From: Patescibacteria group bacterium UBA3531 | GTDB lineage: Bacteria; Patescibacteriota; Minisyncoccia; Phycocordibacterales; UBA3531 | Direction: 5' to 3' | Assembly: GCA_002376885.1 (NCBI GenBank) | Contig: DFOW01000005.1 | Location: 1 to 60,771, forward strand | DNA length: 60,771 nucleotides | Shown: one piece after another, positions 8,595 to 33,207 of the stretch | Position numbering within the stretch: the stretch's first letter is position 1 | Layout of the letters: every line of letters starts with the position of its first letter | The notes under the pieces: generated by a model | What the model was told of the DNA's origin: nothing | Seen by the model: only the letters and a program-made list of their open reading frames with translations | Database searches by the model: none | Program-made: the position numbers and the translations under genes

Positions 8595-9188
8595 CTAAGC
8601 CCCTCCGTTCTTTGGACGGATAATGAGTTGTGAGTAGCGCGTATCAAGACGGTTAGAGTTCCCTTCGTCGGGTCGTGTCCGTCTACTCCAAACTGATTCA
8701 AAATGGCTTTGGGTGATGCACTTGTAATCCTTTCCGTTCTCTCGTGAATCCCTCAGACAGTAGTAATCCTCTTTATCATCAAACCCGCACACCACATAGA
8801 AGTGATCAACATGGTGAATAATGACGGGGACACCGCGAATGATTGACCCTCGCAACGCCCCGAACGCTGCATCACGCATGGAACGATCGCATGAGACTCG
8901 CTCCAACCTCTGATAGAGCTCGGGCACCGCAAGCGTCACCTTGTGATCACTCATGTTCATGGCTGCTTGTGCAAGCTGACCTATAGTGACGTATATGTTA
9001 AACCCAACGCCTTTCCAATCGCCGCTTGTGTCATCTTGCCTAATTTCTCCTCCTCGCAAGAAGGCAGCAACATCCAGCTGATCTAGGCACTGACCCCAAT
9101 ACCGAAGAACAGCTGTGAGCGTAGCGTATCCGCACCACCCGGATGCCCGCTGCTTAACCCACGGAACATCAGGAATAACAAAACGCAT
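8595..9188 (-). CDS. C39-like papain-fold cysteine peptidase domain protein (cassette A, about 50% GC)
   Basis: 197 aa. Q-x5-C motif in KQRASGWCGYATL. His/Asp block in HHVDHFYVVCGFDD. Own promoter candidate TTGACT/TAAACT at 9211-9238 and a GGGGG RBS. Confidence 0.55.
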   Translation of the reverse strand: MRFVIPDVPWVKQRASGWCGYATLTAVLRYWGQCLDQLDVAAFLRGGEIRQDDTSGDWKGVGFNIYVTIGQLAQAAMNMSDHKVTLAVPELYQRLERVSCDRSMRDAAFGALRGSIIRGVPVIIHHVDHFYVVCGFDDKEDYYCLRDSRENGKDYKCITQSHFESVWSRRTRPDEGNSNRLDTRYSQLIIRPKNGGA

Positions 9189-9210
9189 AACACCCCCTTT
9201 TCTAATTGTT

Positions 9211-9238
9211 AGTTTAGCTGTGCAATTGAAGGAGTCAA
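9211..9238 (-). promoter_or_regulatory. promoter candidate for the C39-like gene
   Basis: minus-strand TTGACT (9233-9238), 16-nt spacer, TAAACT (9211-9216). Confidence 0.4.
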
Positions 9239-9254
9239 TATTTTAAAAAAGCGA

Positions 9255-9288
9255 GAGGGCCCGCGCCATGTTTGTGGCGCGGGCCCCT
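9255..9288 (-). terminator. GC-rich intrinsic terminator of the 130-aa cassette gene
   Basis: GGGGCCCGCGCCA-loop-TGGCGCGGGCCC; on the minus strand followed by CTCGCTTTTTT. Confidence 0.7.
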
Positions 9289-9296
9289 TGTTGTGG

Positions 9297-9689
9297 CTAT
9301 GCCTCCTTGAGGCCACAGGCCTCGAGGAGGAGCTTCCGGAGCGGTTCGTCGCTCTTGCTGTCGACAGCGCGAGCCACTGCCATGGCAACCTCGTCGGGGA
9401 TCCCGATCAAGCGCGCCGCTACCGCGTAGTCACCCTCCTTGAAGAAGGTGCCCATCCGTGCCAAAGCGAGTGCCGTGATAGGACACAGAACACCGTCCTC
9501 CTCGCACGGGCGAGCGAACAGACGGATGTGCTCCGGCTTCTTGCTCGTGGGACGAGGGTGAAGTCTGGCCTTCCACCCTTCCACAGTCACGAGCTTCTCG
9601 ATGGCCTCCGCGATCTCGGCAAACCACCGAAGAGCTTCGTCCTCCGTGAGGGTGGATTCGGTTGTTCTTTCTCTTTGCGCGTCTAACAC
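9297..9689 (-). CDS. hypothetical protein, about 60% GC (cassette A)
   Basis: 130 aa; GTG start with GGAGG 5 nt upstream. The protein-like composition contrasts with the plus-strand shadow ORF. Promoter TTGACT/TAGACT at 9713-9740. Confidence 0.65.
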   Translation of the reverse strand: MLDAQRERTTESTLTEDEALRWFAEIAEAIEKLVTVEGWKARLHPRPTSKKPEHIRLFARPCEEDGVLCPITALALARMGTFFKEGDYAVAARLIGIPDEVAMAVARAVDSKSDEPLRKLLLEACGLKEA

Positions 9690-9712
9690 AACGCACCTCC
9701 TTTTCTTGCTCT

Positions 9713-9740
9713 AGTCTATGGTTTTATTAAAAAGAGTCAA
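9713..9740 (-). promoter_or_regulatory. promoter candidate for the 130-aa GC-rich gene, embedded in the 3' flank of the NADAR gene
   Basis: minus-strand TTGACT (9735-9740), 16-nt spacer, TAGACT (9713-9718). Confidence 0.4.
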
Positions 9741-9745
9741 TTGTT

Positions 9746-10186
9746 TCACTTGTTCTCGTCTCGGATCTTCATCCATAGTTTTCCTAAGTGGTTCTCCCCC
9801 TTCCAATCCGGTCCACGTCCCCAAAAAGAATCTCTCGGGGAATCCTCTATGATTTCTTTCTTGTCGGTTCGAGCTAGCTCTTTTTGCACGTATGGATGTT
9901 GTGCAAGTTTTGCTCGAAGAATTTCTTCCATGACATCAATTTTTATATCATCCCAATCTTTTCTAACACTGTCTTTATAGGTAACTGTCGCTAATTTATA
10001 TGCCTCGTGAGAAGACTTGGCATTTTTTACCTCTTCAATTATTTTTTCGTCTTCAAATTTTGCTGTTTGGTAAGCGTGTTCTGATGTCGTCCATAAAACC
10101 CCTCTCCATTCAACCTTAAAAGAGGAGAAGTTTGAAAAAACATACCCTGGTCGTTCGTAAAACAGAACCTTATTCTCTTTTTCCAT
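9746..10186 (-). CDS. NADAR (YbiA/DUF1768) family protein
   Basis: 146 aa; FSNFSSF...WTTSEHAYQTAKF...FWGRG pattern typical of NADAR/YbiA domains; host-like low GC. Confidence 0.75.
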   Translation of the reverse strand: MEKENKVLFYERPGYVFSNFSSFKVEWRGVLWTTSEHAYQTAKFEDEKIIEEVKNAKSSHEAYKLATVTYKDSVRKDWDDIKIDVMEEILRAKLAQHPYVQKELARTDKKEIIEDSPRDSFWGRGPDWKGENHLGKLWMKIRDENK

Positions 10187-10242
10187 TTCCAGAGTATACC
10201 AACCTAGACGAAAAATATCTCGGGGTGGTCAACTGGACGGTA

Positions 10243-10575
10243 TTAGAACTGGGATTCTTCTCCCCTTCTAATCATGTTCCAAATTTTCAGTATAAGTTTA
10301 TCAATGCCAACACCTATAAAGTATATGACTACCGATATTAGAATGACTGCTATCCAATAACCGAAGGCTGGTCCGTCGATAGGAAGCCCGTTCTTATCCC
10401 ACGTTGTGCTAATAAGAAACGAAGAGTTCACACCCAAAATAATAGCAAACGGCAAAACAGGAAAAGGTAATAAAAGACCACAAAGACCCTCTCCACACGT
10501 TACTGTATTCAGTACAAACAACAAATACATAACCACCAATACTGCACCCGTAATACTCCTTGGTATTTTCTTCAT
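10243..10575 (-). CDS. small multi-pass membrane protein
   Basis: 110 aa; three or four hydrophobic segments. Confidence 0.55.
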   Translation of the reverse strand: MKKIPRSITGAVLVVMYLLFVLNTVTCGEGLCGLLLPFPVLPFAIILGVNSSFLISTTWDKNGLPIDGPAFGYWIAVILISVVIYFIGVGIDKLILKIWNMIRRGEESQF

Positions 10576-10643
10576 ACAAAAAATATACCACAGTTCTAAT
10601 CCACTTGAGGGTGTCCTGTGATATGGCTCAAATTAAGGTTGTT

Positions 10644-10681
10644 TTGGCGGGGTGCTCGACAGGGATCGAACCGGCTCTAAA
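10644..10681 (-). pseudogene. orphan tRNA 3'-half-like fragment ending in CCA
   Basis: The minus strand reads GAGCCGGTTCGATCCCTGTCGAGCACCCCGCCA. This gives a T-loop GTTCGATCC, an acceptor-like 3' strand and CCA. The T-stem is not complementary and there is no 5' half. Confidence 0.4.
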
Positions 10682-10755
10682 TGGTGCGGGTAGGGAGAAT
10701 CGAACTCCCGTCGCCTGATTGGAAGTCAGGCGTTTTACCACTAAACTATACCCGC
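10682..10755 (-). tRNA. tRNA-Trp (anticodon CCA), CCA encoded
   Basis: Cloverleaf by eye: acceptor GCGGGTA/TACCCGC, anticodon stem CCTGA/TCAGG with loop CTTCCAA, T arm GGGAG-TTCGATT-CTCCC. Confidence 0.9.
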
Positions 10756-11424
10756 TTATTTTGTGTACACCTCATTCATCCACGCTTCTATTTTCCGTGA
10801 AAAGTATATACCAAATTTTTTATTTCCTTCGCTCCTTACGGTAAGGTGTACTGTCCCATAAGGTAACTTTCCTCGTTTATATACCTTTTTCCCTGTTCTT
10901 TTGTCAATTTGCGTTTTATTGAACTGGGCCTTTGATAAGCTTGTGACCTTTGCCCAGTAATTAACACACGCTTCTATATCGCTATCCGGATACAAATAAA
11001 GTGTTATGGAAAAATTATTTTTTGAAAGTCCACACACTTCCTGGAACCAACGCAGTGCTAACTTGATAACGTCAGGATTTGAATTAACAATACGCACAAT
11101 CCCATGACTTTTTGTCCCCTCACCAATATAGAGCCCCAATCCTAACATAAAAATATCTCTTTTGTTAAGGCTCCCTATTTCCTTTTTTGCTTCACTTTGT
11201 GCTTTTCGTATGGAAGCACGCTTGATCTCATTTTTAACAGTGGCTGACCTAGCACGAGCTTTTCCAATCTTTACAACTGTCTCTTTATTTGGTGTATAGG
11301 GGATTTTTCTAAGCCAGTGACTAAGCGTACTTTTAGAAACACCTACTTCGTCAGCGATAAAACTGTACGAATACCCATTTTGGCGTAACTTTATTGCTCT
11401 TTCTTTTGCTGCTTGCTTACTCAC
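10756..11424 (-). CDS. HTH plus LAGLIDADG-like homing-endonuclease-like protein
   Basis: 222 aa. N-terminal HTH (YSFIADEVGVSKSTLSHWL). LGLGLYIGEGTKS resembles a single LAGLIDADG motif. The stop codon directly abuts the 5' end of tRNA-Trp. Confidence 0.5.
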   Translation of the reverse strand: MSKQAAKERAIKLRQNGYSYSFIADEVGVSKSTLSHWLRKIPYTPNKETVVKIGKARARSATVKNEIKRASIRKAQSEAKKEIGSLNKRDIFMLGLGLYIGEGTKSHGIVRIVNSNPDVIKLALRWFQEVCGLSKNNFSITLYLYPDSDIEACVNYWAKVTSLSKAQFNKTQIDKRTGKKVYKRGKLPYGTVHLTVRSEGNKKFGIYFSRKIEAWMNEVYTK

Positions 11425-11483
11425 ATCTACAGTATATCACATAATATACATATGTTCGTATTTTTATCATCGTCCAGATAACT

Positions 11484-11511
11484 AAAAACCCCGCAAAGTT
11501 GCGGGGTTTTT
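11484..11511. terminator. bidirectional intrinsic terminator
   Basis: AAAAACCCCGC-AAAGTT-GCGGGGTTTTT. Confidence 0.7.
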
Positions 11512-11527
11512 AGTTAGGAGTGTGATA

Positions 11528-11644
11528 CTACTCAGTAGCAGCTTCACCTTCTCCACCTTCAGCTGGTGCAGCTTCTCCTTCTGGAGTAGCTTCACCTTCA
11601 GTTGCTTCTGCACCTTCTGGTGCCATATCTTCTAGTACGATCAT
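11528..11644 (-). CDS. candidate 38-aa acidic micro-ORF (MIVLEDMAPEGAEATEGEATPEGEAAPAEGGEGEAATE)
   Basis: ATG-to-TAG frame with a periodic GAA/GGT-rich repeat. No clear RBS. Similar in style to the micro-ORF at 57905-57991. Confidence 0.25.
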   Translation of the reverse strand: MIVLEDMAPEGAEATEGEATPEGEAAPAEGGEGEAATE

Positions 11645-11714
11645 TGTAAATTCAATGTAAGTCGATTGATAAGTTACGACCGAGTAAACAAAAAGCCCTT
11701 TCAGGCTTAGAGGT

Positions 11715-11742
11715 ATTGTAGCCTATCAGGACTTTTTGTCAA
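11715..11742 (-). promoter_or_regulatory. strong sigma70-like promoter (TTGACA-N16-TACAAT) followed at once by a hairpin plus T-run
   Basis: Minus-strand TTGACA 11737-11742 and TACAAT 11715-11720. The hairpin AAGCC-N6-GGCTT (about 11689-11704) is followed by TTTGTTT. Confidence 0.5.
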
Positions 11743-11804
11743 ACCCGTCAAATAATTTTGTTTACAAAATTAGCTTTGCTATTTGACAGGTTCAATCAGT
11801 TTCT

Positions 11805-13124
11805 TTAACTATTTTGAATAGCGTTCAGTCCGTTTCCGTTTCTGTTTCGTTCTCGTTCTTCACGCAATCCCTTTAATTGTTCGTGCAAGGTTTGCACATA
11901 TACAAAGATAGCAACCAAAAGGACAATCAAAATGGTAAGGATAATCCACCCAAACACCGTGCTTGGGAAGAATCCTCCATTTGAGAGAATGAGTGCTCCT
12001 TGTCCGTTAGCGCGAGCATCGTCAACATCTGCCAAAGTGCCTGCGGTTGTGGTTGCGTTTTCATCTCCATTGTCTCCAAAACCAAAGAGTCGTGCCCAGA
12101 ACCCTCGAGTGTCCTCTTGTGCAGTTGTATCGTTAGAAGATTGAGAGGTGTCGTTTGTGTTTCCGCCTGTATCTGAACCAGAACCTTGATTATTTGAAGC
12201 TGTTCGTGACCCACTTGTTTGAGAAGGCGCGCTTCCTGTATTGTTTGTTCCTTGTGATGACTGATTAGTGTTTGACGTATTAGTGTTAAGAGCAACTGTT
12301 GGAACGCTAAGCGGTTGGTTGAACCCAGTCACTAGTCCCCCATCACTTGTAAATGCCAAGACAGAACCAACGGCTCGTCCACCTGGACCAAGAACTTCGG
12401 CTCGGTAGTAATAAATTGTCCCTGGTGTTAGACCAGTCAGTGTTTCTTGAAAACTAAGACCAAGGAACCCTGCTCCCAAGCCCTTAACTTGGGTTTGTTG
12501 CAAAATGTCAGGGGTGGTTCCCCATCTAAAGTATGCGCTAATGTTTGCGCTCGTATTGGTTTCTGCTTGTCCACGAATAATAACGGTATTGTCGTTAACA
12601 ATCTGCGGAACAAGGGTTACTGCTGTTGGCGCTGGGTATGAAGAGGTAGTGTCGATAATGGTACCAACGTTACTGATAAAGCTTCCGAGCGATTCAGAAA
12701 ACCCATCAATAATCCTAAATCGAATAGTGTCTCCGTATACATATTCTCCGTCAGATTCTTGCGCTACTGCTCGATAGTAATAAAAATCTTCTATATCAAG
12801 ATTAGACAAAAAATGAGAAAGGAAAATTTCATCGTCCCCTATCAAAATAGAGCTGGTTCGTTTACCAAGCGATGACGTCTCTCCCCATTCAAACCATGCG
12901 TTTCCAATGTTTGTTTCATCAGAAAGGTCTGCAATCATTTTAAGTTCTGCGCTCCCTTTATCTTCACCTGATCGATAAAATGATGGTGTAAACGTTACTA
13001 CGTCTCCAAATGGATCGTCGTCATGATCGGCAAGTGCCACTCCTGGCAAAAGGAGAGCAAGCACAAAAAGCCCCACTAAGAGGGTTTCTGCTACTTTTTT
13101 TGCTGTCTGCGCAAAAATATTCAT
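11805..13124 (-). CDS. surface protein with repeated Fn3-like modules, S/T/N/G-rich linker and C-terminal TM anchor
   Basis: Signal peptide from MNIFAQTAKKVAETLLVGLFVLALLLPGVALA (start moved to 13124). Repeated W..T...YYYRA modules. C-terminal TM WIILTILIVLLVAIFVYV. Confidence 0.7.
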   Translation of the reverse strand: MNIFAQTAKKVAETLLVGLFVLALLLPGVALADHDDDPFGDVVTFTPSFYRSGEDKGSAELKMIADLSDETNIGNAWFEWGETSSLGKRTSSILIGDDEIFLSHFLSNLDIEDFYYYRAVAQESDGEYVYGDTIRFRIIDGFSESLGSFISNVGTIIDTTSSYPAPTAVTLVPQIVNDNTVIIRGQAETNTSANISAYFRWGTTPDILQQTQVKGLGAGFLGLSFQETLTGLTPGTIYYYRAEVLGPGGRAVGSVLAFTSDGGLVTGFNQPLSVPTVALNTNTSNTNQSSQGTNNTGSAPSQTSGSRTASNNQGSGSDTGGNTNDTSQSSNDTTAQEDTRGFWARLFGFGDNGDENATTTAGTLADVDDARANGQGALILSNGGFFPSTVFGWIILTILIVLLVAIFVYVQTLHEQLKGLREERERNRNGNGLNAIQNS

Positions 13125-13195
13125 GGTTGGCATTATACAGTACTGACACTTGTTTGTCAATGCTTTCTCTTGATGCCTTTTTTAGTCGGGACGCC

Positions 13196-13268
13196 GGGAT
13201 TCGAACCCGGAATCGCTCGGTCCCAAACCGAGAATGTTAGCCGTTACACCACGTCCCGTCATCATGCT
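13196..13268 (-). tRNA. tRNA-Pro (anticodon TGG)
   Basis: acceptor CGGGACG/CGTCCCG; anticodon stem CTCGG/CCGAG with loop TTTGGGA; T arm CCGGG-TTCGAAT-CCCGG. Confidence 0.9.
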
Positions 13269-13304
13269 TATTAGCCACGCTATAGTAGCACAAAACTCAA
13301 TATT

Positions 13305-13697
13305 TTAAAGCAAAATGTCCTCTAAATGTTCCATCTCATCAACTTCTCCCTCTTTTAAATACACTGCGATTGCATCAACTTGGTAATCTTCGTCCTCTTT
13401 TCCCTCTTCTCTTAGGTAGGTTTGGATAATTCTTCGGAGGCGATCTTTTTTCTGCTTAGTAATATTAAAAAGTGGGTTGTAATCAAAATCCCCCTCTTTC
13501 TTGACAGAGATTGACTTCACCTCAACAAAATGGATCACTCCTTTTTTTGCAGCAATGATGTCAAGCTCTCCCCAGGGTTTTAAATAATTTCTTCCAAGAA
13601 CGGTAAACCCATTCTTCTCCAAGTGTTGTACCGCAATATCTTCCCCCTTGTCTCCTGTTTCTCTATTCTTACTCTTCATATCTTTCACGTGAAACAC
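13305..13697 (-). CDS. yraN: YraN family (UPF0102) endonuclease-like protein
   Basis: 130 aa; GDKGEDIAVQHLEKNGFTVLGRNY...GELDIIA...IHFVEVK pattern. Confidence 0.8.
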   Translation of the reverse strand: MFHVKDMKSKNRETGDKGEDIAVQHLEKNGFTVLGRNYLKPWGELDIIAAKKGVIHFVEVKSISVKKEGDFDYNPLFNITKQKKDRLRRIIQTYLREEGKEDEDYQVDAIAVYLKEGEVDEMEHLEDILL

Positions 13698-13923
13698 TTA
13701 AATCGTTTCTTTGGTAACATTACTGCTGTCTTTTTGGCTTCAAAGACCCTATCTTTAAAATGTCCTTATTTTAAGCCACTTTTCATATGAAACGGACATA
13801 ACGATAGTGTTTGTCTTTGACCTTTATACACATATCCCCAGTTTTATCCCCATTTCTTATTGGACTTTTCCACATAAGAATCCACATTCTGGGGACAAGT
13901 AATGCTCTTAAGGACATTTACTA

Positions 13924-14064
13924 GTGCGGGTAGGGACCTGTCTGCCGACAGGCAGGGAATCGGTCACAGATATTTTGCTCCGCCTGCCTGACGTCAGGCA
14001 GGCAAAATTCCGCGACCCCGCCTCGGTGCTCAGACCAATGGCACACCTCCGGCTTTCGATTCCC
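13924..14064 (-). other. GC-rich structured insert beginning with a duplicated, interrupted tRNA-Gly 3' end (integration-scar-like)
   Basis: GTGCGGGTAGGGA at 13924-13936 repeats 14115-14127. It is followed by a 20-nt hairpin CCTGTCTG-CCGA-CAGGCAGG and then GAATCG (the continuation of the tRNA T-loop). A perfect palindrome GCCTGCCTGAC/GTCAGGCAGGC lies at about 13982-14003. GGGAATCG (13955-13962) pairs with CGATTCCC (14057-14064). Confidence 0.45.
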
Positions 14065-14115
14065 AATACACCTTAAAATTATAGCCCAACACACGGTTGA
14101 GTCATAATTTTCATG

Positions 14116-14199: not shown

Positions 14200-14298
14200 G
14201 GGACTCGGCCACTCTCGCAGAATAGCTATTCTGCTCCATCGGCCCCCACTCGAGCCTTCGTGCTGCGCACGGCTTTGCAGGCTCTCGGTTCGAGTCCC
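14200..14298. ncRNA. candidate about 100-nt GC-rich structured RNA between tRNA-Gly and tRNA-Arg
   Basis: Closing stem GGGACTCG (14200-14207) with CGAGTCCC (14291-14298). Hairpins: GCAGAATA-GC-TATTCTGC 14217-14234, and GAGCCT...AGGCTC 14253-14284 enclosing CGTGC-TGC-GCACG. Contains a T-loop-like GGTTCGAGTCC but no cloverleaf. Confidence 0.35.
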
Positions 14299-14357
14299 CC
14301 TAAAAGCATTAAAATAATATTTCAAGGACACTTCTTGCCCTCGAAATTTATTTTAGG

Positions 14358-16475: not shown

Positions 16476-17366
16476 TTATCGCTTTTTACCGTGGAATTTC
16501 TTATGAATATCTCGCAAGGCCTTATCGGTTACATGGGTATATACCTGGGTGGTTGCAATATTTGCATGGCCAAGCATGGCTTGAACACTACGGAGATCAG
16601 CACCGTTTGAAAGAAGGTCAGTTGCAAAAGAGTGCCGAATAACATGCGGTGTTACTTTTTTACTAATGCCCGCCGCTATTGCATAGTGCTTCACCAATCG
16701 TTCAACGCTTCGTGTGGTGAGCGGGGTAGCATCGTCAATGGTTTTGTCGCTTTTAGGAATTGCCACAAAGAGGTGTTCTGACATGTCAGCACGTTTATCT
16801 AAATAATCCTTGAGTGCATCCCGCGCGCTAGGGGAGAGAAACACCACTCGCACTTTTTGCCCCTTTCCTCGGACTGAAAATTCGTCTCGTTTTAGATCAA
16901 CGGCGTCAATCGTAAGCCCTACAAGCTCCGACACACGGAGTCCTGTAGAGAATAAAAGCTCTAAAATAGCCTTGTCTCGCAACGTTTTTAGATCAGTTCC
17001 TTTTGGGGCCTGAAGCAATCTCTCGAGCTCGTCAGCAGAAATAAGGTCGAGTTCACGCCCTCCCGTTTTTGCAAGCTCGATCCGTTCTGGCGCCAGCGAC
17101 TCAATGCCTCGTTTTGCTAAATATTTCAAAAAAGACCGAAGAGCAATCAGATAATAGTTCTGCGTATTTTTTTTGAGTTCTTCGCGATTGAGGGTAAGAC
17201 GATATTTCCTAACAATATCGTCGGTGATTTTGCGAGGGTCTTTTAACCCAGAGAAATCAATAAACTTAGCAAGGTATCTGTCATAGTTTTCAACCGTTTT
17301 TAAGCTTCGCCCTCGTTCAATTTCAAGGTATTCAAGAAATTCTTGCTTTAAATCATGCAAATCCAT
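16476..17366 (-). CDS. tyrosine recombinase, XerC/XerD family
   Basis: 296 aa; N-terminal SAM-like domain; catalytic region HVIRHSFATDLL...LGHANIATTQVYTHV. Confidence 0.88.
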   Translation of the reverse strand: MDLHDLKQEFLEYLEIERGRSLKTVENYDRYLAKFIDFSGLKDPRKITDDIVRKYRLTLNREELKKNTQNYYLIALRSFLKYLAKRGIESLAPERIELAKTGGRELDLISADELERLLQAPKGTDLKTLRDKAILELLFSTGLRVSELVGLTIDAVDLKRDEFSVRGKGQKVRVVFLSPSARDALKDYLDKRADMSEHLFVAIPKSDKTIDDATPLTTRSVERLVKHYAIAAGISKKVTPHVIRHSFATDLLSNGADLRSVQAMLGHANIATTQVYTHVTDKALRDIHKKFHGKKR

Positions 17367-17486: not shown

Positions 17487-17514
17487 TTGACAAAAATTCT
17501 ACCTAGGGTAAAGT
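17487..17514 (+). promoter_or_regulatory. sigma70-like promoter (TTGACA-N16-TAAAGT) for the GC-rich RNA
   Basis: TTGACA 17487-17492; TAAAGT 17509-17514. Confidence 0.45.
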
Positions 17515-17519
17515 ACTCT

Positions 17520-17891
17520 TCACGGCTGGCCGCCTTGCGGGGCACGGGATTCCTACGGGATTCCTCTTGCTACCGCCCGCCCGCCGTAGTCAAAAAACGG
17601 CAAACCTTGGCCCATCACGGGTCAAACGATCTGGGGGATCGAGTGACGAACTCGTCGCATCCGCCGTAGGTCTAGGCGCCCAGGGCGCCCAGGTACAAAC
17701 CGCAGCTAAGCCCGAATGAGGGGCATACGCTCGCCTCGTAGACCGAGGCAACCAGGACCCACAAAGAGATGGAATGTCGCGCCAACGGCCGCGGCCCCAC
17801 TGGGAAAAGCCTCTCACGAATACAGGTCCTTGGGCCGTAAGGTCCTCCGGGGCCGGAATCGACACCACATCGATTCCGGCCCTTCATCTTT
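17520..17891 (+). ncRNA. about 370-nt GC-rich non-coding RNA of unknown class, with its own promoter and terminator
   Basis: No protein-like ORF (the ORFs present are W/R/P-rich). Many local hairpins: CGAGT-GACGA-ACTCG, GCCTCG-TAGAC-CGAGGC, GGCGCC-CAG-GGCGCC. Tandem ACGGGATTCCT x2. Terminator GGCCGGAATCGA-N7-TCGATTCCGGCC (17851-17881) followed by CTTCATCTTTT. Confidence 0.55.
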
Positions 17892-17950
17892 TAATAAACA
17901 CCATTAAACCCTTGCAATAAGCCATATTTAATGCTATTATCATTTTCACG

Positions 17951-21112: not shown

Positions 21113-21135
21113 ATTTTTATAAATAATAAAAACTA

Positions 21136-21168
21136 AAAAGCCCGGGAGTGTTACCTTCCGGGCTTTTT
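21136..21168. terminator. bidirectional terminator shared by pnp and the convergent GC-rich cassette B
   Basis: AAAAAGCCCGGGA-N8-TCCGGGCTTTTT. Confidence 0.75.
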
Positions 21169-21180
21169 GGCTACCGCTGG

Positions 21181-21459
21181 CTACTGCCAGCTTTCGTCGC
21201 CTCTGAAATCCTCGAAGATGTCCTGTGTTGCATCTTTGTCGTCGCTCCACAGGATTACATTGAATCCCGAGAGATCATCCTTTTGCCGAATCTGGACAGA
21301 GGCAATTTCTCCCTCATACTCCGTGTCACCGACATGAAGGGCAAGCTCTGCACCAGCCGCCGGAACGAAGGGGAGGATGAAGTCCTTTGAGAAGATCTCT
21401 TCATTCTCTTCACGACCAAGAACCACCACAACCGTGACACAAATTTCAGGAACACTCAT
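21181..21459 (-). CDS. hypothetical acidic 92-aa protein, GC-rich (cassette B)
   Basis: ATG with AGGAGG 5 nt upstream; protein-like composition; the overlapping plus-strand 201-aa ORF is S/T-rich low-complexity. Confidence 0.6.
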   Translation of the reverse strand: MSVPEICVTVVVVLGREENEEIFSKDFILPFVPAAGAELALHVGDTEYEGEIASVQIRQKDDLSGFNVILWSDDKDATQDIFEDFRGDESWQ

Positions 21460-21649
21460 CGTGTCCTCCTTAAAAGAACATTCTGTTTCGTCTTGCCGAT
21501 TTGACTTGGAAGACTCGTCAGTCAGCCTTGGGCTGAGACAGAGGAAGTTTTTGAATAGAACTTCCGAAACTATGGAACCTGTGGTCTCGCCCGTGTTCCC
21601 CGATGGTTATTACCTCCACCGGTTGGCACGGATCCCCACTCACGCAAGG

Positions 21650-21931
21650 TTACCATTCGTCGGCGCGGTATTCTCTGCACAAGCGCTCACCGTACTCCAG
21701 TTTGGTACCATCTCCTGGGTACACAACAATACGGTTAAGGTGGGATGCCCACGATGCTCGCTCACCATACACTTCGCGCACAGCACAGCAAATCACATCC
21801 CACGCAACGCTCTTCAGCCAAACAAGTCCCTCTCCGTCACCCATTTTGTAGACAGGGTTGTCTCGCAGTTCGCGCAACTCTTCATAGAGTTGCGCGTATG
21901 CCCGCCAAGCCTCTATGACACGGGTATCCAT
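21650..21931 (-). CDS. hypothetical 93-aa protein, GC-rich (cassette B)
   Basis: ATG at 21931 with AAGGAG 7 nt upstream (the track starts one codon earlier, at a GTG). Confidence 0.6.
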   Translation of the reverse strand: MDTRVIEAWRAYAQLYEELRELRDNPVYKMGDGEGLVWLKSVAWDVICCAVREVYGERASWASHLNRIVVYPGDGTKLEYGERLCREYRADEW

Positions 21932-22123
21932 CACGATTCTCCTTGCAAAGAACTAGTGGGCATTATTGCCCGAGAGGGATAAGCACTTACTCATCACCTC
22001 ACTATTTCTACGCCAATTATATTCTAATCTGTCAAGTTTGTGCGTTTATATAGATACGTTTTATTATAAATACCTATATTTTTAGCCATATCTTAGATAC
22101 ATATTTAATTTTGTGCGTTTGGA

Positions 22124-25918: not shown

Positions 25919-25947
25919 TTGACATTACAAAAAATAAAGTGTATTAT
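25919..25947 (+). promoter_or_regulatory. promoter (TTGACA-N17-TATTAT) of GC-rich cassette C
   Basis: TTGACA 25919-25924; TATTAT 25942-25947. Confidence 0.5.
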
Positions 25948-25992
25948 ATTTTTTAGAAATTTCGCCCTTTTTAAATAAGAGGAGAATCTCAA

Positions 25993-26346
25993 ATGGCGCT
26001 TACGGTAGCATCGCCCAAGCTGAGTCTGGCAGAGGCCACCCTCGGAAGGTGGGTGGGCTTGCCCATCAACATGGGTGGAGAGCTCGGATACGTCGCATGC
26101 GCAGGTCGCGTGACGGCAGTCAACGACGACAAGAGCATCGTCGTGACGCTTCTCGGTTCGACCTGGCCCCGAACGGAACTCCGTGGGACGATCATCTCGA
26201 TCACCCAGGAGCGCTTCGGCAGGGGTGAGGCCACGATCTACGCGATGACCAACGACGAAGAAGCGGAGCACACGGAAGAAGCCCAGAAGTGGATCGAAGA
26301 ACAGCGTGGCTTCCTCGAGCGCCTCATGGAGGCGCTCGAGAGCTAG
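25993..26346 (+). CDS. hypothetical 117-aa protein, GC-rich (cassette C)
   Basis: ATG preceded by AAGAGGAG; the composition switches abruptly at the start codon. Confidence 0.65.
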   Translation: MALTVASPKLSLAEATLGRWVGLPINMGGELGYVACAGRVTAVNDDKSIVVTLLGSTWPRTELRGTIISITQERFGRGEATIYAMTNDEEAEHTEEAQKWIEEQRGFLERLMEALES

Positions 26347-26371
26347 CTGGTTCCGAGAAGGAGTCACGTCC

Positions 26372-26560
26372 ATGAATCAAGACCAGTTCGGAAAGATGAT
26401 CGTCTGCTGGCTCGGTCCAGCGTTCGTGATTCTCGCGTCCCCGTTCATCCTCGCTGGCCTCATCCTCGCCGTGCAGAACCTTCCCCTGGGTGGGTTCACG
26501 ACCGACGAGACGAAGCACGAGATCACGGTCACGGGAGAGTTCACCTTCCCTCCGTACTAG
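26372..26560 (+). CDS. hypothetical 62-aa membrane protein, GC-rich (cassette C)
   Basis: ATG at 26372 with AAGGAG about 10 nt upstream; TM WLGPAFVILASPFILAGLILAV. Confidence 0.55.
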   Translation: MNQDQFGKMIVCWLGPAFVILASPFILAGLILAVQNLPLGGFTTDETKHEITVTGEFTFPPY

Positions 26561-26582
26561 AGCGTCGGAGGAGATGACACAG

Positions 26583-26622
26583 AAGCCCCTTAGTAGGAAA
26601 CGAACAGGGGCTTTGTCTTTTT
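26583..26622 (+). terminator. terminator of cassette C
   Basis: AAGCCCCT-N15-AGGGGCTT then TGTCTTTTT. Confidence 0.65.
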
Positions 26623-26670
26623 AAATCTCTCAAGAAACCACATTTGGGAGCATCTACTTATAAATCTCTC

Positions 26671-26796
26671 TTGGAGCAGGGTTTGAGAACCTGCCGGAGA
26701 AAATTTTGCTTGGCTCAGCCGTAGGCTGAAAAATTTTCGAGGATAAGCGAGCGCTCCGCAGGAGAGCGCGAAGCGGGTTCTCAAACCCTGCTCCAA
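26671..26796 (+). ncRNA. structured RNA motif, copy 1 (P1 plus three-way junction with conserved CTGCCGNAG / TGCTTGG / YCGAGGATAAG)
   Basis: P1 is 26671-26691 with 26776-26796 (21 bp). CTGCCGGAG 26691-26699; TGCTTGG 26707-26713. Hairpin TCAGCC-GTA-GGCTGA 26715-26729. TCGAGGATAAG 26737-26747. Hairpin GCGCTC-N7-GAGCGC 26751-26769. CTTGG pairs with TCGAG through G-U pairs only on the plus strand. Confidence 0.55.
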
Positions 26797-26848
26797 AAAA
26801 AATAAACCCTATTGAATTTCGCAAGCCACCACGATACACTAAAGGCAT

Positions 26849-27265: not shown

Positions 27266-27826
27266 GTGGTAGCCAGACTGGCATGGCGCCAGAGGAGACA
27301 GGAATTGGAAACTCATTACCATTTGAGAAGCGGGAGTCCCCAGGATGGAATCCTCCTTGGTCCGGGCGCGATTCTTCAGGCGGGCGACAAGCTGGCGCAT
27401 CCCGACGGGTTCTGGGAACCGTGCATGACCCCAGGAGCTCTTCTTTGGGATAGGCCGAAAGAGGTTTGCTGGGTTCGCCCCGTCGACCTCCCTCGGCACC
27501 TGAAGGACCTCTTGGTCTTCATTGCCGAGCGGGGGCGCCTCCTGTACCGACGAGACGAGACGCTCTTCGAAGAAGGAACGCAAGGGAAGATCGACACACG
27601 CCCGTGCTGGAAGATGCTCCGCGGAGCACACGAGGTAGACCGAGCCGATGCAACGAGTGGTGGCATTCCCGGTATCGGGGCACTTGCCTTCGTCGATCCG
27701 CTCCTTGCCTACGGACTTCTCACTCCCGCAAGCGGGAGTGAAGTGCTCTTCTCTCCCAACGAGTACGGGACACGTGTTGCCATCAACCATCTCGCCGAAA
27801 GGTGGGCAGATGAGGTTGCGACATAG
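27266..27826 (+). CDS. hypothetical protein, GC-rich (cassette D); start codon uncertain
   Basis: The plus frame ends at TAG 27824-27826, followed by a plus-oriented terminator. A TTG near 27305 with GGAG upstream is an alternative start. The 233-aa minus-strand ORF is judged a shadow. Confidence 0.5.
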   Translation: MVARLAWRQRRQELETHYHLRSGSPQDGILLGPGAILQAGDKLAHPDGFWEPCMTPGALLWDRPKEVCWVRPVDLPRHLKDLLVFIAERGRLLYRRDETLFEEGTQGKIDTRPCWKMLRGAHEVDRADATSGGIPGIGALAFVDPLLAYGLLTPASGSEVLFSPNEYGTRVAINHLAERWADEVAT

Positions 27827-27837
27827 TCGCAAGACCA

Positions 27838-27876
27838 GGGGCCGTCCACAGCTGTGGACGGCCCCTTCTTCTTTTG
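27838..27876 (+). terminator. GC-rich terminator of cassette D
   Basis: GGGGCCGTCCAC-AGCT-GTGGACGGCCCC then TTCTTCTTTTG; a T-run follows only on the plus strand. Confidence 0.75.
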
Positions 27877-27891
27877 TGATACACTCTCCCC

Positions 27892-29439: not shown

Positions 29440-29442
29440 GCG

Positions 29443-29471
29443 TTGACAAAAATATAAAAATAGTGTATATT
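29443..29471 (+). promoter_or_regulatory. consensus promoter (TTGACA-N17-TATATT) of GC-rich cassette E
   Basis: TTGACA 29443-29448; TATATT 29466-29471; starts 4 nt after the comM stop. Confidence 0.55.
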
Positions 29472-29573
29472 TACGAATGGATAATCGGGTTGAGAATGTC
29501 TCTTCCTGGTTAATTAACCCCACGACTGCAAACAGGCTGTATGAGCCTAGACAGTCACTAGAAGGGTTGTTCC

Positions 29574-30866
29574 ATGACAAGCGAACTGACGACACTGAAT
29601 CTTCCTGCCAACCGACCGAGTCCCCAGGAGCTCTTCGACTACCCCCAGTACACGATCCCCGGGATCACCACTTGGGAGCAGGTCGTGCTCCTCGGGAGCA
29701 AGAACATCGGGGCGATGATCAGCCGGTGTCGCTCCCGCGAGAAGGAGCTCACCAGCAGGATCCAGCGGCTCGTCGAGAAGCAGAAGCTTCTCGAAGGCAA
29801 GTCCGGTGACGACATCAAGGAGATGGCCAAGGGTTTCGAGAATCCCACCATCACCGAGACGGGTGTCCCGGACGGTAGCTGGAACGACGACCTGGAGCCG
29901 ACCGACGGGGCGAGTAAGGCCCGCGAACGCGGGGCGACCACCTTCAACATCTGCGGGTGGTGCACGCACGCCGGTGGAGGCACCTGTCGCTACGGCTACT
30001 ACATCAAGACCAGCTGTGGCCTGATGCACGGCGACTCGCCCGAGACGGCCTTCAACACACCTTGTCTCCTCCAGGAGATGGGGAACGACCAGATCACGGC
30101 GATCGTCGAACGCACCAAGAACCTGATCATGGACACCAAGGAACTCCGCGAGAAGGTGCGGACCGGAATCCGGATCCTGCAGCAGCTCAAGGAGAACGAG
30201 GGGTCCACGGAGAAGCCCTACCTGATGTCCCTCCGTCCGCATGACCACTTCAACGTCGGCGACGACGTGATGGTGCGCATCGGCGGCCACGACAACGTGA
30301 TCGTGGAGGGCGAGTGGGCTCCGGCGATGGTGGTGTTCGGCTACCGTCATCACGATGGCTGCGTGAGCACCCAGACGCTGTTCCCGATCCACAACGGTGA
30401 AAATCTCGAGGGTCGGGGATGGGGCTTCGGGATGAGTCGTCCGGAATGCCTCCTCAGGAGCGAGTTCAGCTACCTGCGGGACGCCTTCGAGAACGACCTC
30501 TGGTTCCTGCGGCTTTGGCTGCAGGCGCTCGACGAGAAGCTGACGGGCTTCAACCCCGTAAGCTTCCGGAAGGCACTCCAGGACGGTGCGATCGCCGACC
30601 CGCCCGAGGACTGGGATCCCCCCGTCGACGAGATCGCTGTTCGAAGCGTCGAGGATGCGCAGTGCGTACTCCAGATGCTCAACGTCGACCTCTTCGACAC
30701 GGAGGAGAAGGTTCGTGGCTGGGTCAACATGCAGCTGCAGTTCGTTCACCCCGACAAGCACGCCAACGGCAACAAGGGCGCCCAGTCCTATGCCGAGCGT
30801 CAGACGAAGGCGGTGTATGCGGCGCGTGATCTCCTGATCCAGCGCCTGCGGGATCGTCAGAGCTAG
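29574..30866 (+). CDS. 430-aa protein with C-terminal J domain (HPD motif) and central Cys-rich region, GC-rich (cassette E)
   Basis: J-domain-like C-terminus: DAQCVLQMLNVDL..EEKVRGWVNMQLQFVHPDKH...AYAARDLL, with HPD at 30747-30755. Cys cluster CGWCTHAGGGTCRYGYYIKTSCG. The 442-aa antisense ORF is a shadow. Confidence 0.75.
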   Translation: MTSELTTLNLPANRPSPQELFDYPQYTIPGITTWEQVVLLGSKNIGAMISRCRSREKELTSRIQRLVEKQKLLEGKSGDDIKEMAKGFENPTITETGVPDGSWNDDLEPTDGASKARERGATTFNICGWCTHAGGGTCRYGYYIKTSCGLMHGDSPETAFNTPCLLQEMGNDQITAIVERTKNLIMDTKELREKVRTGIRILQQLKENEGSTEKPYLMSLRPHDHFNVGDDVMVRIGGHDNVIVEGEWAPAMVVFGYRHHDGCVSTQTLFPIHNGENLEGRGWGFGMSRPECLLRSEFSYLRDAFENDLWFLRLWLQALDEKLTGFNPVSFRKALQDGAIADPPEDWDPPVDEIAVRSVEDAQCVLQMLNVDLFDTEEKVRGWVNMQLQFVHPDKHANGNKGAQSYAERQTKAVYAARDLLIQRLRDRQS

Positions 30867-30884
30867 GAGGCGCAAGCCTCAATC

Positions 30885-30930
30885 GGCCCCGGCCACTAAC
30901 TTCGGTTAGTGCGTCCGGGGCCATTTTGTT
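30885..30930 (+). terminator. GC-rich terminator of cassette E
   Basis: GGCCCCGG...CCGGGGCC enclosing CACTAAC-TTCG-GTTAGTG, then ATTTTGTT. Confidence 0.7.
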
Positions 30931-30972
30931 CCTATTCTGTAACTTTTTTTAATTAATCTCGTTATATACAAC

Positions 30973-31039
30973 GAAGGGCAGATAGTCTCATAGACGAGAC
31001 CTGATGAGCTCACAAGAAAACGAGCGAAATCTGTTTTTC
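30973..31039 (+). ncRNA. type III hammerhead self-cleaving ribozyme (complete catalytic core)
   Basis: Stem III: 30973-30983 with 31029-39. Cleavage triplet AUA, with the cut predicted after 30984. Stem I: GTCTC-ATAGAC-GAGAC, 30985-31000. CTGATGA 31001-07. Stem II: GCTC-N10-GAGC, 31008-25. GAA plus A15.1, 31026-29. Confidence 0.8.
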
Positions 31040-31088
31040 AATGTAAGCCTCAACCCTAGTTAGTAGTTTGCCTTACTAAACAGGGTCA

Positions 31089-31119
31089 ACACAAAACCCC
31101 CATATGGGGGTTTTGTGTT
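31089..31119. terminator. bidirectional terminator (serves the M23 peptidase gene on the minus strand)
   Basis: ACACAAAACCCCC-ATA-GGGGGTTTTGTGT. Confidence 0.75.
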
Positions 31120-31181
31120 CGCCTGAGATGTCTCCTTACTTTTATTATGAAAAGTTAAAATGGGTTTACCCGTTCAGTATT

Positions 31182-32267
31182 TTAGAAAGGGTTTTTTGCT
31201 CCGCGCACTTCAAAGTGAACATGGGGCCCTGTTGAGCGTCCGGTGTTCCCAACGTATCCAATAACTTGTCCTTGAACCACGCTTTGCCCAGCATACACAA
31301 TGTTACTTGAGTTGTGCGAGTATACCGTCTGTGTTCCGTTAGGGTGTGCAATAACAATGTAATTTCCGTACCCTCCATTCCAGCCTGTTCGTGAAATAAT
31401 CACATCCCCACTTGCCGCCGCTAAGATAGGTGTTCCTGTTGGGGTAGCCAAGTCAACAGCATTGTATCCGTGAAGCCCTTGTGTTCGTTTGTATCCAGTA
31501 ACGGGAGCACTAAAGTATCCACTAATTGCTGGACCTCCTGCTCCTCTTACAATAGCGCCTGTTGCGGTAGAGGTATAACTACTTTGAATTTTTCCATCGG
31601 GAACAATAATACTGTCGCCAACAGCCAAAACATGACCGTCTTGTATTCCATTAAATGAAATAATTTCTTCTGTCTTTACGCCATATTTCTTAGCGATACT
31701 TGCGAGCGTGTCTCCACTTTTTACGGTGTGCTCAATTCCGCTTACTGGCAAAATTACAAGCGTTTGTCCTTCATGAATCACACCACCTCGTCCAATATCA
31801 TTTGCCCAAATAATAGTGTCGGTTGTTACTCCAAATAGTTTTGCAATTTGCGAAAGGGAGTCACCAGAACGAACCACATACACACTAATTTGTTCTGGCC
31901 GTGGGGCAATTTCGGTATTACCCCTGGAACCAAGTGGTCCATTGTCGGCCACAAGTGCTTGCCCGTCAGCAATCGTTACGTCCCCACCTCCTTTAGCTGG
32001 GTTGGGGTCTGGGTTAAGGGCCGCACGCAAAAGCGCTACGTTTTGAGAGTTGATATCGTAGGTAAGATCATTATCTACTCCAAATAAACTCCCCAAAAAA
32101 GAAACAATCCCGGCATGAGCAGGGAGAGCAAAGGATCCAAGGATAATAAGGGCAACCACAAGGGTAGTGGCCTTTTTAAATGAAAGGTTCTTTAAAGTTC
32201 GTATAATCGCCTGAAGCCATGTACCGGAAGGTTCAGGGTCTTGTAGATTCGATGTAATAAGCCTCAA
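31182..32267 (-). CDS. LysM-LysM-M23 family peptidoglycan endopeptidase
   Basis: 361 aa; TM anchor; two LysM repeats (YVVRSGDSLSQIAKLFGV, HTVKSGDTLASIAKKYGV); M23 motifs (GLHGYNAVD, GPHVHFEV). Confidence 0.88.
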   Translation of the reverse strand: MRLITSNLQDPEPSGTWLQAIIRTLKNLSFKKATTLVVALIILGSFALPAHAGIVSFLGSLFGVDNDLTYDINSQNVALLRAALNPDPNPAKGGGDVTIADGQALVADNGPLGSRGNTEIAPRPEQISVYVVRSGDSLSQIAKLFGVTTDTIIWANDIGRGGVIHEGQTLVILPVSGIEHTVKSGDTLASIAKKYGVKTEEIISFNGIQDGHVLAVGDSIIVPDGKIQSSYTSTATGAIVRGAGGPAISGYFSAPVTGYKRTQGLHGYNAVDLATPTGTPILAAASGDVIISRTGWNGGYGNYIVIAHPNGTQTVYSHNSSNIVYAGQSVVQGQVIGYVGNTGRSTGPHVHFEVRGAKNPF

Positions 32268-32406
32268 TATTATGTGAGCAATTGAGTATAAGTTGCAAAA
32301 AAAGCCTTATTTCAGGCCATATTTGCTGTGACCGTAGTAATTACTCACCCACCATTTTACCCCTAGGGAAGGAAAAAGCAATGATTTTGTGGATAAGAAA
32401 ATACTC

Positions 32407-32436
32407 TTGACAAAAGAGTGATTATTGTGCTATAGT
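32407..32436 (+). promoter_or_regulatory. promoter (TTGACA-N18-TATAGT) of the GC-rich pilin cassette
   Basis: TTGACA 32407-32412; TATAGT 32431-32436; a perfect DnaA-box 9-mer TGTGGATAA lies at 32388-32396 just upstream. Confidence 0.5.
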
Positions 32437-32495
32437 TCCTCCAGTTTCTGGGAGAAATCCCACCACAGAACCTTCACACCAAGGAGATCGATACC

Positions 32496-32897
32496 ATGCG
32501 GAACCACCGCAACGGCTTCACCCTGATCGAGCTCATGATCGTCGTCGCCATCATCGGCATCTTGGCGGCCATCGCCATCCCGAACTTCCTGCATTTCCAG
32601 ATCAAGCAGCAGATGAACGTGGAGTTCCAGGAGGTCGCCACGGCCCTCGAGCTGTCGGACGCCGGGGACCCCGTCCCCTCGCTGTGCACCGGCACCTGGC
32701 GCAACGAGAAGGGCAACCGCTTCGACTGCTACCTCAAGAGCTTCGAGGATGGCGGTCACGTGGTGACCATCCGCTTCTACTACCAGGACGACCCGGACCC
32801 CAGCCATGCGCTGACCTGGGCGATCAACGAAAACGGCGAGGTGGATCTCCCGACCTACGAGTCCCTGCGTCACCCACACAGGCAGACGAGCTCCTAG
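32496..32897 (+). CDS. type IV pilin / pseudopilin with canonical class III signal peptide, GC-rich (cassette F)
   Basis: 133 aa; MRNHRNG|FTLIELMIVVAIIGILAAIAIPNF (G-1, F+1, E+5); two Cys in the C-terminal half; AAGGAG RBS. Confidence 0.85.
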   Translation: MRNHRNGFTLIELMIVVAIIGILAAIAIPNFLHFQIKQQMNVEFQEVATALELSDAGDPVPSLCTGTWRNEKGNRFDCYLKSFEDGGHVVTIRFYYQDDPDPSHALTWAINENGEVDLPTYESLRHPHRQTSS

Positions 32898-32920
32898 GCA
32901 GCCGTCCTTCGGGACGTCGA

Positions 32921-32960
32921 GAGCCTTGACAGCACATCACTGTCGGGGCTCTTTCTTTTT
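32921..32960 (+). terminator. terminator of the pilin gene
   Basis: GAGCCTTGACAG-N7-CTGTCGGGGCTC (two G-U pairs) then TTTCTTTTT. Confidence 0.7.
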
Positions 32961-33004
32961 ATTTATTTTGAACGTAAAGTGATAGAAGAAACACGGAGGG
33001 TCTC

Positions 33005-33169
33005 ATGAAATTGTTACGCACACTAGGTGCTGTCGCAGCTCTCTTGTTCGTCGGGTTCCTCGCTTGGAGGGCATTCACCGGAGAAGGTGAGCCCGGATCG
33101 CTCCTTCTGATCGGAGCAGGAATCGCAGGGCTCTCGCTCTTGCGAACCAGGCACCCGGTGAGCTACTAG
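33005..33169 (+). CDS. 54-aa protein: signal/TM helix plus PEP-CTERM-like tail, GC-rich (cassette F)
   Basis: MKLLRTLGAVAALLFVGFLAWRAFTGEGEPGSLLLIGAGIAGLSLLRTRHPVSY; GGAGGG RBS. The tail (EP-GSLLLIGAGIAGLSLL-RTR) resembles a PEP-CTERM sorting signal. Not in the ORF track because it is under 60 aa. Confidence 0.45.
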   Translation: MKLLRTLGAVAALLFVGFLAWRAFTGEGEPGSLLLIGAGIAGLSLLRTRHPVSY

Positions 33170-33176
33170 GGACTCT

Positions 33177-33207
33177 GCCCCGGCGCATGCGCCGGGGCTT
33201 CCTTTTT
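33177..33207 (+). terminator. GC-rich terminator
   Basis: GCCCCGGCGC-AT-GCGCCGGGGC then TTCCTTTTT. Confidence 0.75.

Follow-up and report, generated by a model that had tools for sequence, protein, structure and literature searches.

The contig DFOW01000005.1 of the Patescibacteria group bacterium UBA3531, analysed here over 60,771 nucleotides (nt) (hereafter the window, 43% G+C), carries in its intergenic gaps a series of small GC-rich islands, at least eight units (A1, A2, B, C, D, E, F/F2 and G) that together contain 11 open reading frames (ORFs). On balance, these islands are to be read as accessory genes that were acquired horizontally, in at least seven to eight separate events, and that have been kept as self-contained transcription units resembling the morons of phages. 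The contrast in composition, the insertion of the islands into a gene order kept by relatives, the architecture of the units at the level of sequence, and the positional mobility and conservation as a unit of island E are observed directly; from these we infer a horizontal origin for the other islands as well, together with the routes by which they would have entered the genome.

Composition of the islands and their place in a conserved gene order

The island ORFs were compared with 52 host ORFs of the window. The G+C content at third codon positions (GC3) of the latter is 0.345 (standard deviation 0.046, n = 52) and never exceeds 0.483, and all 11 island ORFs are found above this maximum, between 0.515 and 0.940 (z = 3.7–12.9; individual values in Table 1), in agreement with the original prediction, made from the letters of the window alone, that the units are compositionally foreign. 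The GC-rich segments had also been placed correctly, as the measured G+C content (GC) is 0.56 at 8776–9716, 0.52 at 21131–21986, 0.56 at 25958–26796, 0.60 at 27.3–27.9 kb, 0.62 at 29518–30950, 0.56 at 32426–33430 and 0.58 from 60553 to the end, against a window mean of 0.43, and three counts of G+C made by hand (37/60, 18/60 and 27/60) proved to be exact. The excess is strongest at third codon positions, as is expected of protein-coding DNA from a GC-rich background, and the promoters and leaders of the islands have a composition similar to that of the host. That the islands could be GC-rich RNA genes is ruled out for A1, D, E and F by profile or homologue evidence together with the GC of the codon positions, and is unlikely for the remaining ones, which have GC3 > GC1 > GC2 and a ribosome-binding site (RBS).

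The density of these genes is also out of the ordinary: between 8 and 34 kb the GC-rich outlier ORFs amount to 2.7 per 10 kb, and the related loci, of which 111 were compared, have a median of 0 and do not exceed 1.5. This measure, at the level of the ORF, was used instead of raw windowed GC, in which the comparison with relatives is confounded by the GC-rich cores of conserved genes.

The position of the islands was examined against 159 related loci from genomes and metagenomes. The gene order pnp ... h464-dksA-comM-M23(-)-uvrD recurs in related Paceibacteria loci, where the gap between dksA and comM has a median of 37 nt (n = 143; here 681 nt, with island D), that between h464 and dksA 41 nt (n = 58; here 944 nt, with island C), that between comM and the M23 gene 210 nt (n = 50; here 1743 nt, with island E), and that between the M23 gene and uvrD 369 nt (n = 29; here 1151 nt, with islands F/F2). 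Since the genes are adjacent in the relatives, with short gaps, and no homologue of an island protein appears in any of the 159 loci, the islands are lineage-specific insertions. Where gaps of other lineages are enlarged, their GC is not above that of the genome by more than about 0.05. The claim that essentially every gap between 25.9 and 33.4 kb carries a unit was borne out, all of them being occupied, and so was the claim that one transfer would not suffice, because conserved host genes in conserved order stand between the units and their GC3 spreads from 0.52 to 0.94, which excludes a single event.

The comM-M23 gap exceeds 500 nt in 20 of the 50 relatives, and is therefore a recurrent insertion site. 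In another of the Paceibacteria (locus L051, 11560–12030, minus strand) a TTGACA promoter, a GC-rich ORF of 69 amino acids (aa) and a terminator lie directly downstream of comM; this gene, with a GC of 0.60 versus 0.43, is unrelated to those of the window and, as read from its sequence, is Zn-ribbon-like, with paired CxxC motifs. GC-rich mini-cassettes are thus not unique to the lineage of the window.

Architecture of the units and the family of island E

The original prediction had described a largely uniform build of promoter, RBS, ORF and terminator, and the promoter and terminator scans support it at the level of sequence, including the unclear promoters of B and D. When the stretch from 20.9 to 33.5 kb was scored over 12 sigma-70 positions, only three sites reached 11 of 12 matches, one each at the promoter of C (25919), of E (29443) and of F (32407); those of A1 and A2 have 9 of 12, and in B and D no convincing promoter was found in the scan, B having a TTGACA without a good -10 box. 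The promoters begin very close to the upstream stop codon, at 6 nt in A2, 14 nt in C and 3 nt in E. Strong hairpin and T-run terminators lie 3′ of A2, C, D, E, F and F2, the strongest being those of A2, D, F and F2. These signals would be used by the cell, to judge from their sequence. The start codons have been revised in two cases, that of D to TTG 27305 (not 27266), fixed by alignment with 26 remote homologues, and that of C2 to 26372, the rest of the described build being accurate.

For island E it is possible to follow the unit through other genomes. The protein has 149 homologues, the named ones in Paceibacterota, Minisyncoccota and Kaiserbacteria, and a genome scan gave 36 loci, mostly labelled Patescibacteria. 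Many AT-rich hosts likewise have the homologue as a single GC-rich gene with sharp limits (GC of 0.51 vs 0.37 for the host in L105, 0.60 vs 0.435 in L107, and 0.60 vs 0.47 in L100); among 11 full-length loci its GC3, of 0.49–0.85, is uncorrelated with that of the flanks (rho -0.01), with a mean offset of +0.21, and the flanking genes are almost never common to different loci. In nine genomes the unit is conserved whole, with a TTGACA-N17-TATAAT promoter, a leader some 100 nt long, the ORF and parts of the terminator. The leader (29472–29573 on the plus strand of the window; L099–L106 among the relatives) consists of two hairpins, an AACCCC stretch and then GGAGGUUGUUCC-AUGACA, and as 14 of its 22 predicted pairs have compensatory changes across the nine genomes, it is a candidate cis-regulatory RNA. 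In two genomes E adjoins a Ltp-like lipoprotein, an HTH_17 protein, a tyrosine integrase and a serine recombinase, and a shorter relative of its core is found on two IMG/VR contigs, one of which carries an HNH endonuclease and an endolysin-type peptidase. Given the conservation from promoter to terminator, the unrelated neighbours, and the integrase and recombinase beside it in two genomes, E is a positionally mobile, complete expression unit of the gene pool of the Candidate Phyla Radiation (CPR).

Table 1. Coordinates of the island units and of the structured elements associated with them (positions in the window).
Unit	Feature	Position	Strand	Description	GC3
A1	unit	8476–9238	-	promoter TTGACT-16-TAAACT, 9238–9211
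A1	ORF	9188–8595	-	197 aa	0.515 (z 3.7)
A1	probable terminator hairpin	8491–8476	-	from promoter and terminator scan
A2	unit	9256–9740	-	promoter TTGACT-16-TAGACT, 9740–9713, after NADAR stop codon
A2	ORF	9689–9297	-	130 aa; AGGAGG RBS	0.733 (z 8.4)
A2	terminator	9287–9256	-	13-bp GC hairpin
B	unit	21136–22035	-	TTGACA at 22035–22030
B	ORF B2	21934–21650	-	94 aa	0.558
B	hammerhead motif 1 (type III)	21482–21542	-	between B2 and B1, 23 nt before RBS of B1; Rfam 35.4 bits
B	ORF B1	21459–21181	-	92 aa; preceded by RBS	0.548
B	terminator	21170–21136	-	common to pnp
C	unit	25919–26622	+	promoter TTGACA-17-TATTAT, 25919–25947
C	ORF C1	25993–26346	+	117 aa	0.780
C	ORF C2	26372–26560	+	62 aa, membrane-like	0.825
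C	terminator	26583–26622	+
	R1 copy 1	26660–26806	+	between terminator of C and dksA; folding z -8.2
D	unit	27305–27866	+	3′ of dksA terminator
D	ORF	27305–27826	+	173 aa; TTG start	0.644
D	terminator	27837–27866	+	13-bp
E	unit	29443–30929	+	promoter TTGACA-17-TATATT, 29443–29471, after comM stop codon
E	structured leader	29472–29573	+
E	ORF	29574–30866	+	430 aa	0.854
E	terminator	30885–30929	+
	hammerhead motif 2 (type III)	30973–31039	+	AT-rich stretch after terminator of E; CUGAUGA/GAAA core, AUA cleavage triplet
F/F2	unit	32407–33198	+	promoter TTGACA-18-TATAGT with extended TG, 32407–32436
F/F2	ORF F	32496–32897	+	133 aa, type IV pilin-like	0.940
F/F2	terminator of F	32919–32953	+
F/F2	ORF F2	33005–33169	+	54 aa; signal peptide and PEP-CTERM-like tail	0.636
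F/F2	terminator of F2	33177–33198	+
	R1 copy 2	33257–33398	+	between terminator of F2 and uvrD/pcrA
G	unit, cut by window end	60232–60771	+	TTGACA, promoter-like, at 60232; roughly 300-nt leader; GC-rich ORF from 60562	0.700

Proteins, candidate structured RNAs and repeats

Some of the island proteins can be assigned. The C39-like peptidase proposed for A1 was confirmed by the Pfam family Peptidase_C39_2 (9e-10; PF13529 39.7 bits vs a gathering threshold of 24, and PF03412 22.2 vs 22), and in F the N-terminal prepilin motif of a type IV pilin is equally clear (N_methyl PF07963 1e-10; TIGR02532 6e-10, with 38.5 bits vs a cut-off of 16.3). The PEP-CTERM-like peptide suggested for F2 is borderline, with 15.5 bits vs a cut-off of 16 (PEP_CTERM, TIGR02595). 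In E, proposed as a J-domain protein, the HPD motif of the C-terminus is present and conserved, with no Pfam match for the J-domain, a PDB profile E-value of 0.76 and a Foldseek probability of 0.82–0.85 (E-value > 1), so that this part of the prediction is weakly supported; the protein has a Cys-rich core followed by this J-domain-like C-terminus (AlphaFold2 predicted local distance difference test, pLDDT, of 87). D has an N-terminal beta domain and a winged-helix-like C-terminus (pLDDT of 89), with weak MarR-like matches, and its family is small: the proteins have about 150 aa, and of 1.84 billion proteins clustered at 50% there are 28 representatives that belong to it; a word-indexed search returned D alone. 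Foldseek comparisons with PDB and BFVD gave no significant global structural match for either E or D.

The proteins of A2, B1, B2, C1, C2 and G have no match in the family libraries Pfam, PHROGs, NCBIfam and PADLOC, and in PADLOC no island protein matches a defence system. The PHROG matches in the window are only of pilin and NADAR type; no match was obtained in single-protein scans of viral contigs with A1, A2 and E, nor by tblastn of A1 and E against the GenBank phages. The coding strand of E and F is the plus strand, as indicated by the homologues of E, at 1e-150, and by the prepilin motif of F, and the public gene calls put them on the opposite one (29547–30875, minus, 404/442 aa; 32430–32879, minus, 147 aa). 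The antisense frames stay open because of the high GC3, and gene callers trained on an AT-rich host miscall the strand, so that public annotations lack the two proteins or give them wrongly.

The genes around the islands are those of a core chromosome: the window contains RNase Y, HU, four tRNAs, the CCA-adding enzyme, XerC/D, S15, PNPase and DksA, followed by ComM, the M23/LysM peptidase, UvrD/PcrA and then more operons up to 60 kb. The relatives of its ComM at 55–61% identity are only in CPR genomes of Paceibacteria/Parcubacteria type.

In addition to the coding units, several gaps contain what would be structured RNAs. Two motifs are type III hammerhead ribozyme candidates, to judge from their sequence, and like the bacterial and phage type III hammerheads (RF00008) they have the whole catalytic core, their three helices and a permitted cleavage triplet, and one of the two motifs lies between ORFs of the same orientation. 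They differ from these in that both score below the Rfam gathering threshold of 48.5 (35.4 bits, and 27.6 bits for the second one, matching Hammerhead_3 with an E-value of 4e-4 in a local search), because stem I and its loop are short. In the related loci (about 1.4 Mb) there are at least two convincing hammerheads: a scan gave one (L051, 457–509, minus strand) and one poor case, and missed the copy in L083, which was found by nhmmer. This last one, in another CPR genome (3862–3925, plus strand), is homologous and has the same layout of ORF, hammerhead, RBS and ORF as island B.

The repeat R1 is present in two copies (Table 1) of about 140 nt, with a long outer stem, a three-way junction and the conserved stretches CGAGGAYAAG and UGCUYGG. 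Two further copies occur in one other, distant, Patescibacteria metagenome-assembled genome (L022, 4897–5047, minus strand; L271, 3831–3974, plus strand); across the four copies 20 of 35 pairs are compensatory and a covariance model matches, and Rfam gave no match. R1 could be an RNA motif or an element similar to a miniature inverted-repeat transposable element. An exact-pattern scan of genomes for R1 gave mostly matches due to chance or to coding sequence, in Actinobacteria, and the covariance model accepted a single one of them as a true R1. The leader of G forms a multi-branch structure with a long stem (60294–60458, plus strand; folding z -8.3), which matches neither the R1 model nor Rfam.

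Between xerC/D and rpsO (17487–17895, plus strand) there is another GC-rich segment, absent from the list of the original prediction, with a TTGACA promoter, about 375 nt at 58% G+C and a strong terminator (folding z -4.45). It lacks a credible ORF, and Rfam gave no match, not even locally; what it holds is probably a structured RNA gene, an unclassified candidate, rather than a protein cassette. Elsewhere, the last 21 nt at the 3′ end of tRNA-Gly(gcc) (repeat at 13916–13936) recur at a distance of 191 nt, the two copies flanking GC-rich non-coding DNA (13937–14106), and a T-arm-like GGTTCGAGTCC lies on the opposite strand (14287–14305), adjoining tRNA-Arg. This region may be what is left of an integration site, or else an RNA that went undetected; the repeat adjoins no island. 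The hammerheads, R1, the leader of E and the 375-nt RNA are candidates for new RNA families.

Origin of the islands

According to the reading proposed here, each unit would consist of a sigma-70-type promoter, a leader, an RBS, one or two ORFs and an intrinsic terminator, and would have settled in the intergenic gaps of the tightly packed array pnp ... dksA-comM-M23 peptidase-uvrD, conserved across Paceibacteria. The high GC3 would mark donors, or a mobile gene pool, with more G+C than the 43% of this genome, and its spread from 0.52 to 0.94 would reflect different donors or ages, E at least having been derived from the gene pool of the Patescibacteria. The entry could have taken place (i) by uptake of DNA followed by illegitimate or short-homology recombination, or (ii) by delivery through CPR phages or integrative elements, with subsequent loss of everything except the useful unit. 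According to PMC12455944, most of the gene transfers detected into Patescibacteria come from other Patescibacteria, with which the affiliation of E agrees.

Among known systems, the closest parallel would be the phage morons (Juhala/Hendrix), which carry a promoter and a terminator of their own and a deviant GC, and are positioned between genes that are adjacent in relatives (PMC3594210). The islands share with them the extra gene between genes adjacent in the relatives (four gaps, with medians of 37–369 nt, in up to 143 loci) and the composition unlike that of the neighbouring genes; by consensus matches a promoter is predicted for A1, A2, C, E and F, and none is clear for B and D. Morons are also spread by horizontal transfer (PMC3594210). 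They differ in that the recipient here is a core chromosome of the CPR (rpsO, pnp, dksA, comM, uvrD) with no phage genes nearby, and in that the units crowd into some 25 kb, plus one where the contig ends. To our knowledge, the mechanism that inserts the phage morons is likewise not established.

The frequent individual transfers into streamlined genomes, as single genes or small islands, that are treated in PMC12455944 are also similar, although its available text contains no description of one-gene units in series, each with promoter and terminator and an extreme GC3 contrast, in consecutive gaps of a syntenic core, or of a cassette conserved as a whole, leader included. Integron cassettes too are small mobile units, mostly of a single ORF, of heterogeneous composition and accumulated side by side; however, they are promoterless, end in attC and form one array next to intI/attI, and the units here have their own promoter or terminator, are split by housekeeping genes, and have no attC-like repeat or IntI. 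As the ends also lack a common imperfect palindrome and the only tyrosine recombinase is XerC/D-like, integron cassettes were rejected, as was a classical genomic island or integrative element, given the size of 0.5–1.5 kb, with one or two genes, and the lack of an integrase and of flanking repeats.

Alternatively, sharp compositional junctions in a contig derived from a metagenome could suggest a chimera or contamination, in which GC-rich reads of another organism were joined into an AT-rich contig. This option, which the original prediction had left standing, is rejected and can be regarded as practically excluded: contigs 100% identical to this one exist in ERZ842013, GCA_002708165.1, SRR5324449, ERR599159, GCA_001371435.1, JGI 3300020447 and ERZ27286447, that is, the same sequence was recovered from at least six datasets with different assemblers, and therefore there is no chimera. 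When different samples were assembled in the manner of SPAdes, MEGAHIT and Logan, more than 14 AT/GC junctions came out 100% identical, those of cassette B also being present in Logan contigs of single runs, and the cassettes are joined to promoters and ribosome-binding sites of host type and to shared terminators. In the comparison of 8923–35211 of the window with L001–L005 and L092–L097, identity was 100% over up to 22 kb. The population may be strikingly clonal, or the source of the sequence may be widely shared; we take ERR599159 and GCA_001371435.1 to be Tara Oceans data, and the organism is apparently a clonal population of Paceibacteria, apparently marine, without a close sequenced relative.

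That the GC richness could be an intrinsic property of small accessory genes, maintained by selection, possibly in long-term residents of the CPR pangenome, seems to us unlikely. Such a property might serve mRNA structure or stability, the control of translation, or the escape from nucleases or silencers targeted to AT-rich DNA, and would fit with several observations: homologues of E at 53–87% identity keep their excess of GC3 in 9 of 11 loci whatever the GC3 of the host, most of the excess falls on third codon positions, with promoters and leaders close to the host in composition, E has a conserved leader predicted to be regulatory, and another of the Paceibacteria holds an unrelated GC-rich mini-cassette in the same gap. 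Nevertheless, no known selective force yields a GC3 of 0.85–0.94 in a genome at 0.35, the GC3 of the islands differs widely from one to another, none of the 159 syntenic relatives has the genes, E has unrelated neighbours in every genome, and in the high-GC hosts L106 and L108 it is not GC-richer than its flanks. We consider quite unlikely a dedicated system of the Patescibacteria, a cellular counterpart of the phage morons, that would disperse promoter-leader-ORF-terminator units into intergenic sites, either by a recombinase acting in trans or through an RNA intermediate, of which the hammerheads and R1 might be functional parts or footprints. The conserved unit of E does span from the -35 box to the terminator, the promoters of A2, C and E start at a distance of 3–14 nt from the preceding stop codon, and the two hammerheads and two R1 copies lie exactly in gaps that bear islands, whereas only two convincing hammerheads were found in about 1.4 Mb of relatives, and R1 in one other genome. 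Against this, hammerheads and R1 are absent from all 36 other loci of E, the cassettes have no common end sequences, there is no candidate enzyme nearby except the XerC/D-like recombinase (16476–17366), and selection after random insertion would likewise trim an insert to its functional unit. Capture from a high-GC host cell of the presumed episymbiont, a donor named as an example in the original prediction, is in our opinion very unlikely and has not been upheld, since E, the sole island with traceable relatives, is a Patescibacteria-wide family, which makes other CPR bacteria or their mobile elements a better guess. This capture would be in keeping with F, with a GC3 of 0.94, being a classical type IV pilin or pseudopilin, with the PEP-CTERM-like tail of F2, a sorting signal typical of diderm bacteria, and with the fact that for most islands no CPR homologue was found; the score of F2 is, however, below the cut-off, and the genome scan with F matched only the generic N-terminal pilin motif, in Marinobacter and Pirellulaceae, without giving a donor.

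Several results count against the horizontal acquisition of moron-like units. The search for repeats revealed no common cassette ends, terminal inverted repeats or target-site duplications at the island boundaries, where there is also no integrase, transposase or attC-like site, the sole tyrosine recombinase near the islands, the XerC/D-like gene, being at a distance of 9 kb. For A1, A2, B1, B2, C1, C2, F and G neither a donor nor a close homologue was found, no search able to detect relatives having succeeded for A2, B1, B2, C1, C2 and G, the relatives of D are only remote, and the nearest homologue of E, at 57% identity, identifies no recent donor; the lasting GC excess of its diverged homologues could equally be a property of the gene itself. 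A scan of metagenomes with ComM gave no relative above about 61% identity, and thus no empty site at nucleotide level and no dating, and all the recovered copies of the sequence are identical, so that no presence or absence polymorphism is seen. Weighing these points with the preceding ones, horizontal acquisition in separate events remains the reading we favour.

In summary, the islands are best described as a moron-like accretion of foreign genes, unusually dense, in a core chromosome of the CPR. The CPR, or Patescibacteria, have minimal genomes and probably live on other cells. In this contig a tightly conserved core array has received in almost every available gap a foreign gene that is predicted to express itself, and E travels through the phylum as a complete package of regulatory and coding sequence. 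If this were general, one of the main ways in which streamlined symbionts innovate could be moron-like accretion, and such units would be easy markers for the mobile gene pool of the CPR.

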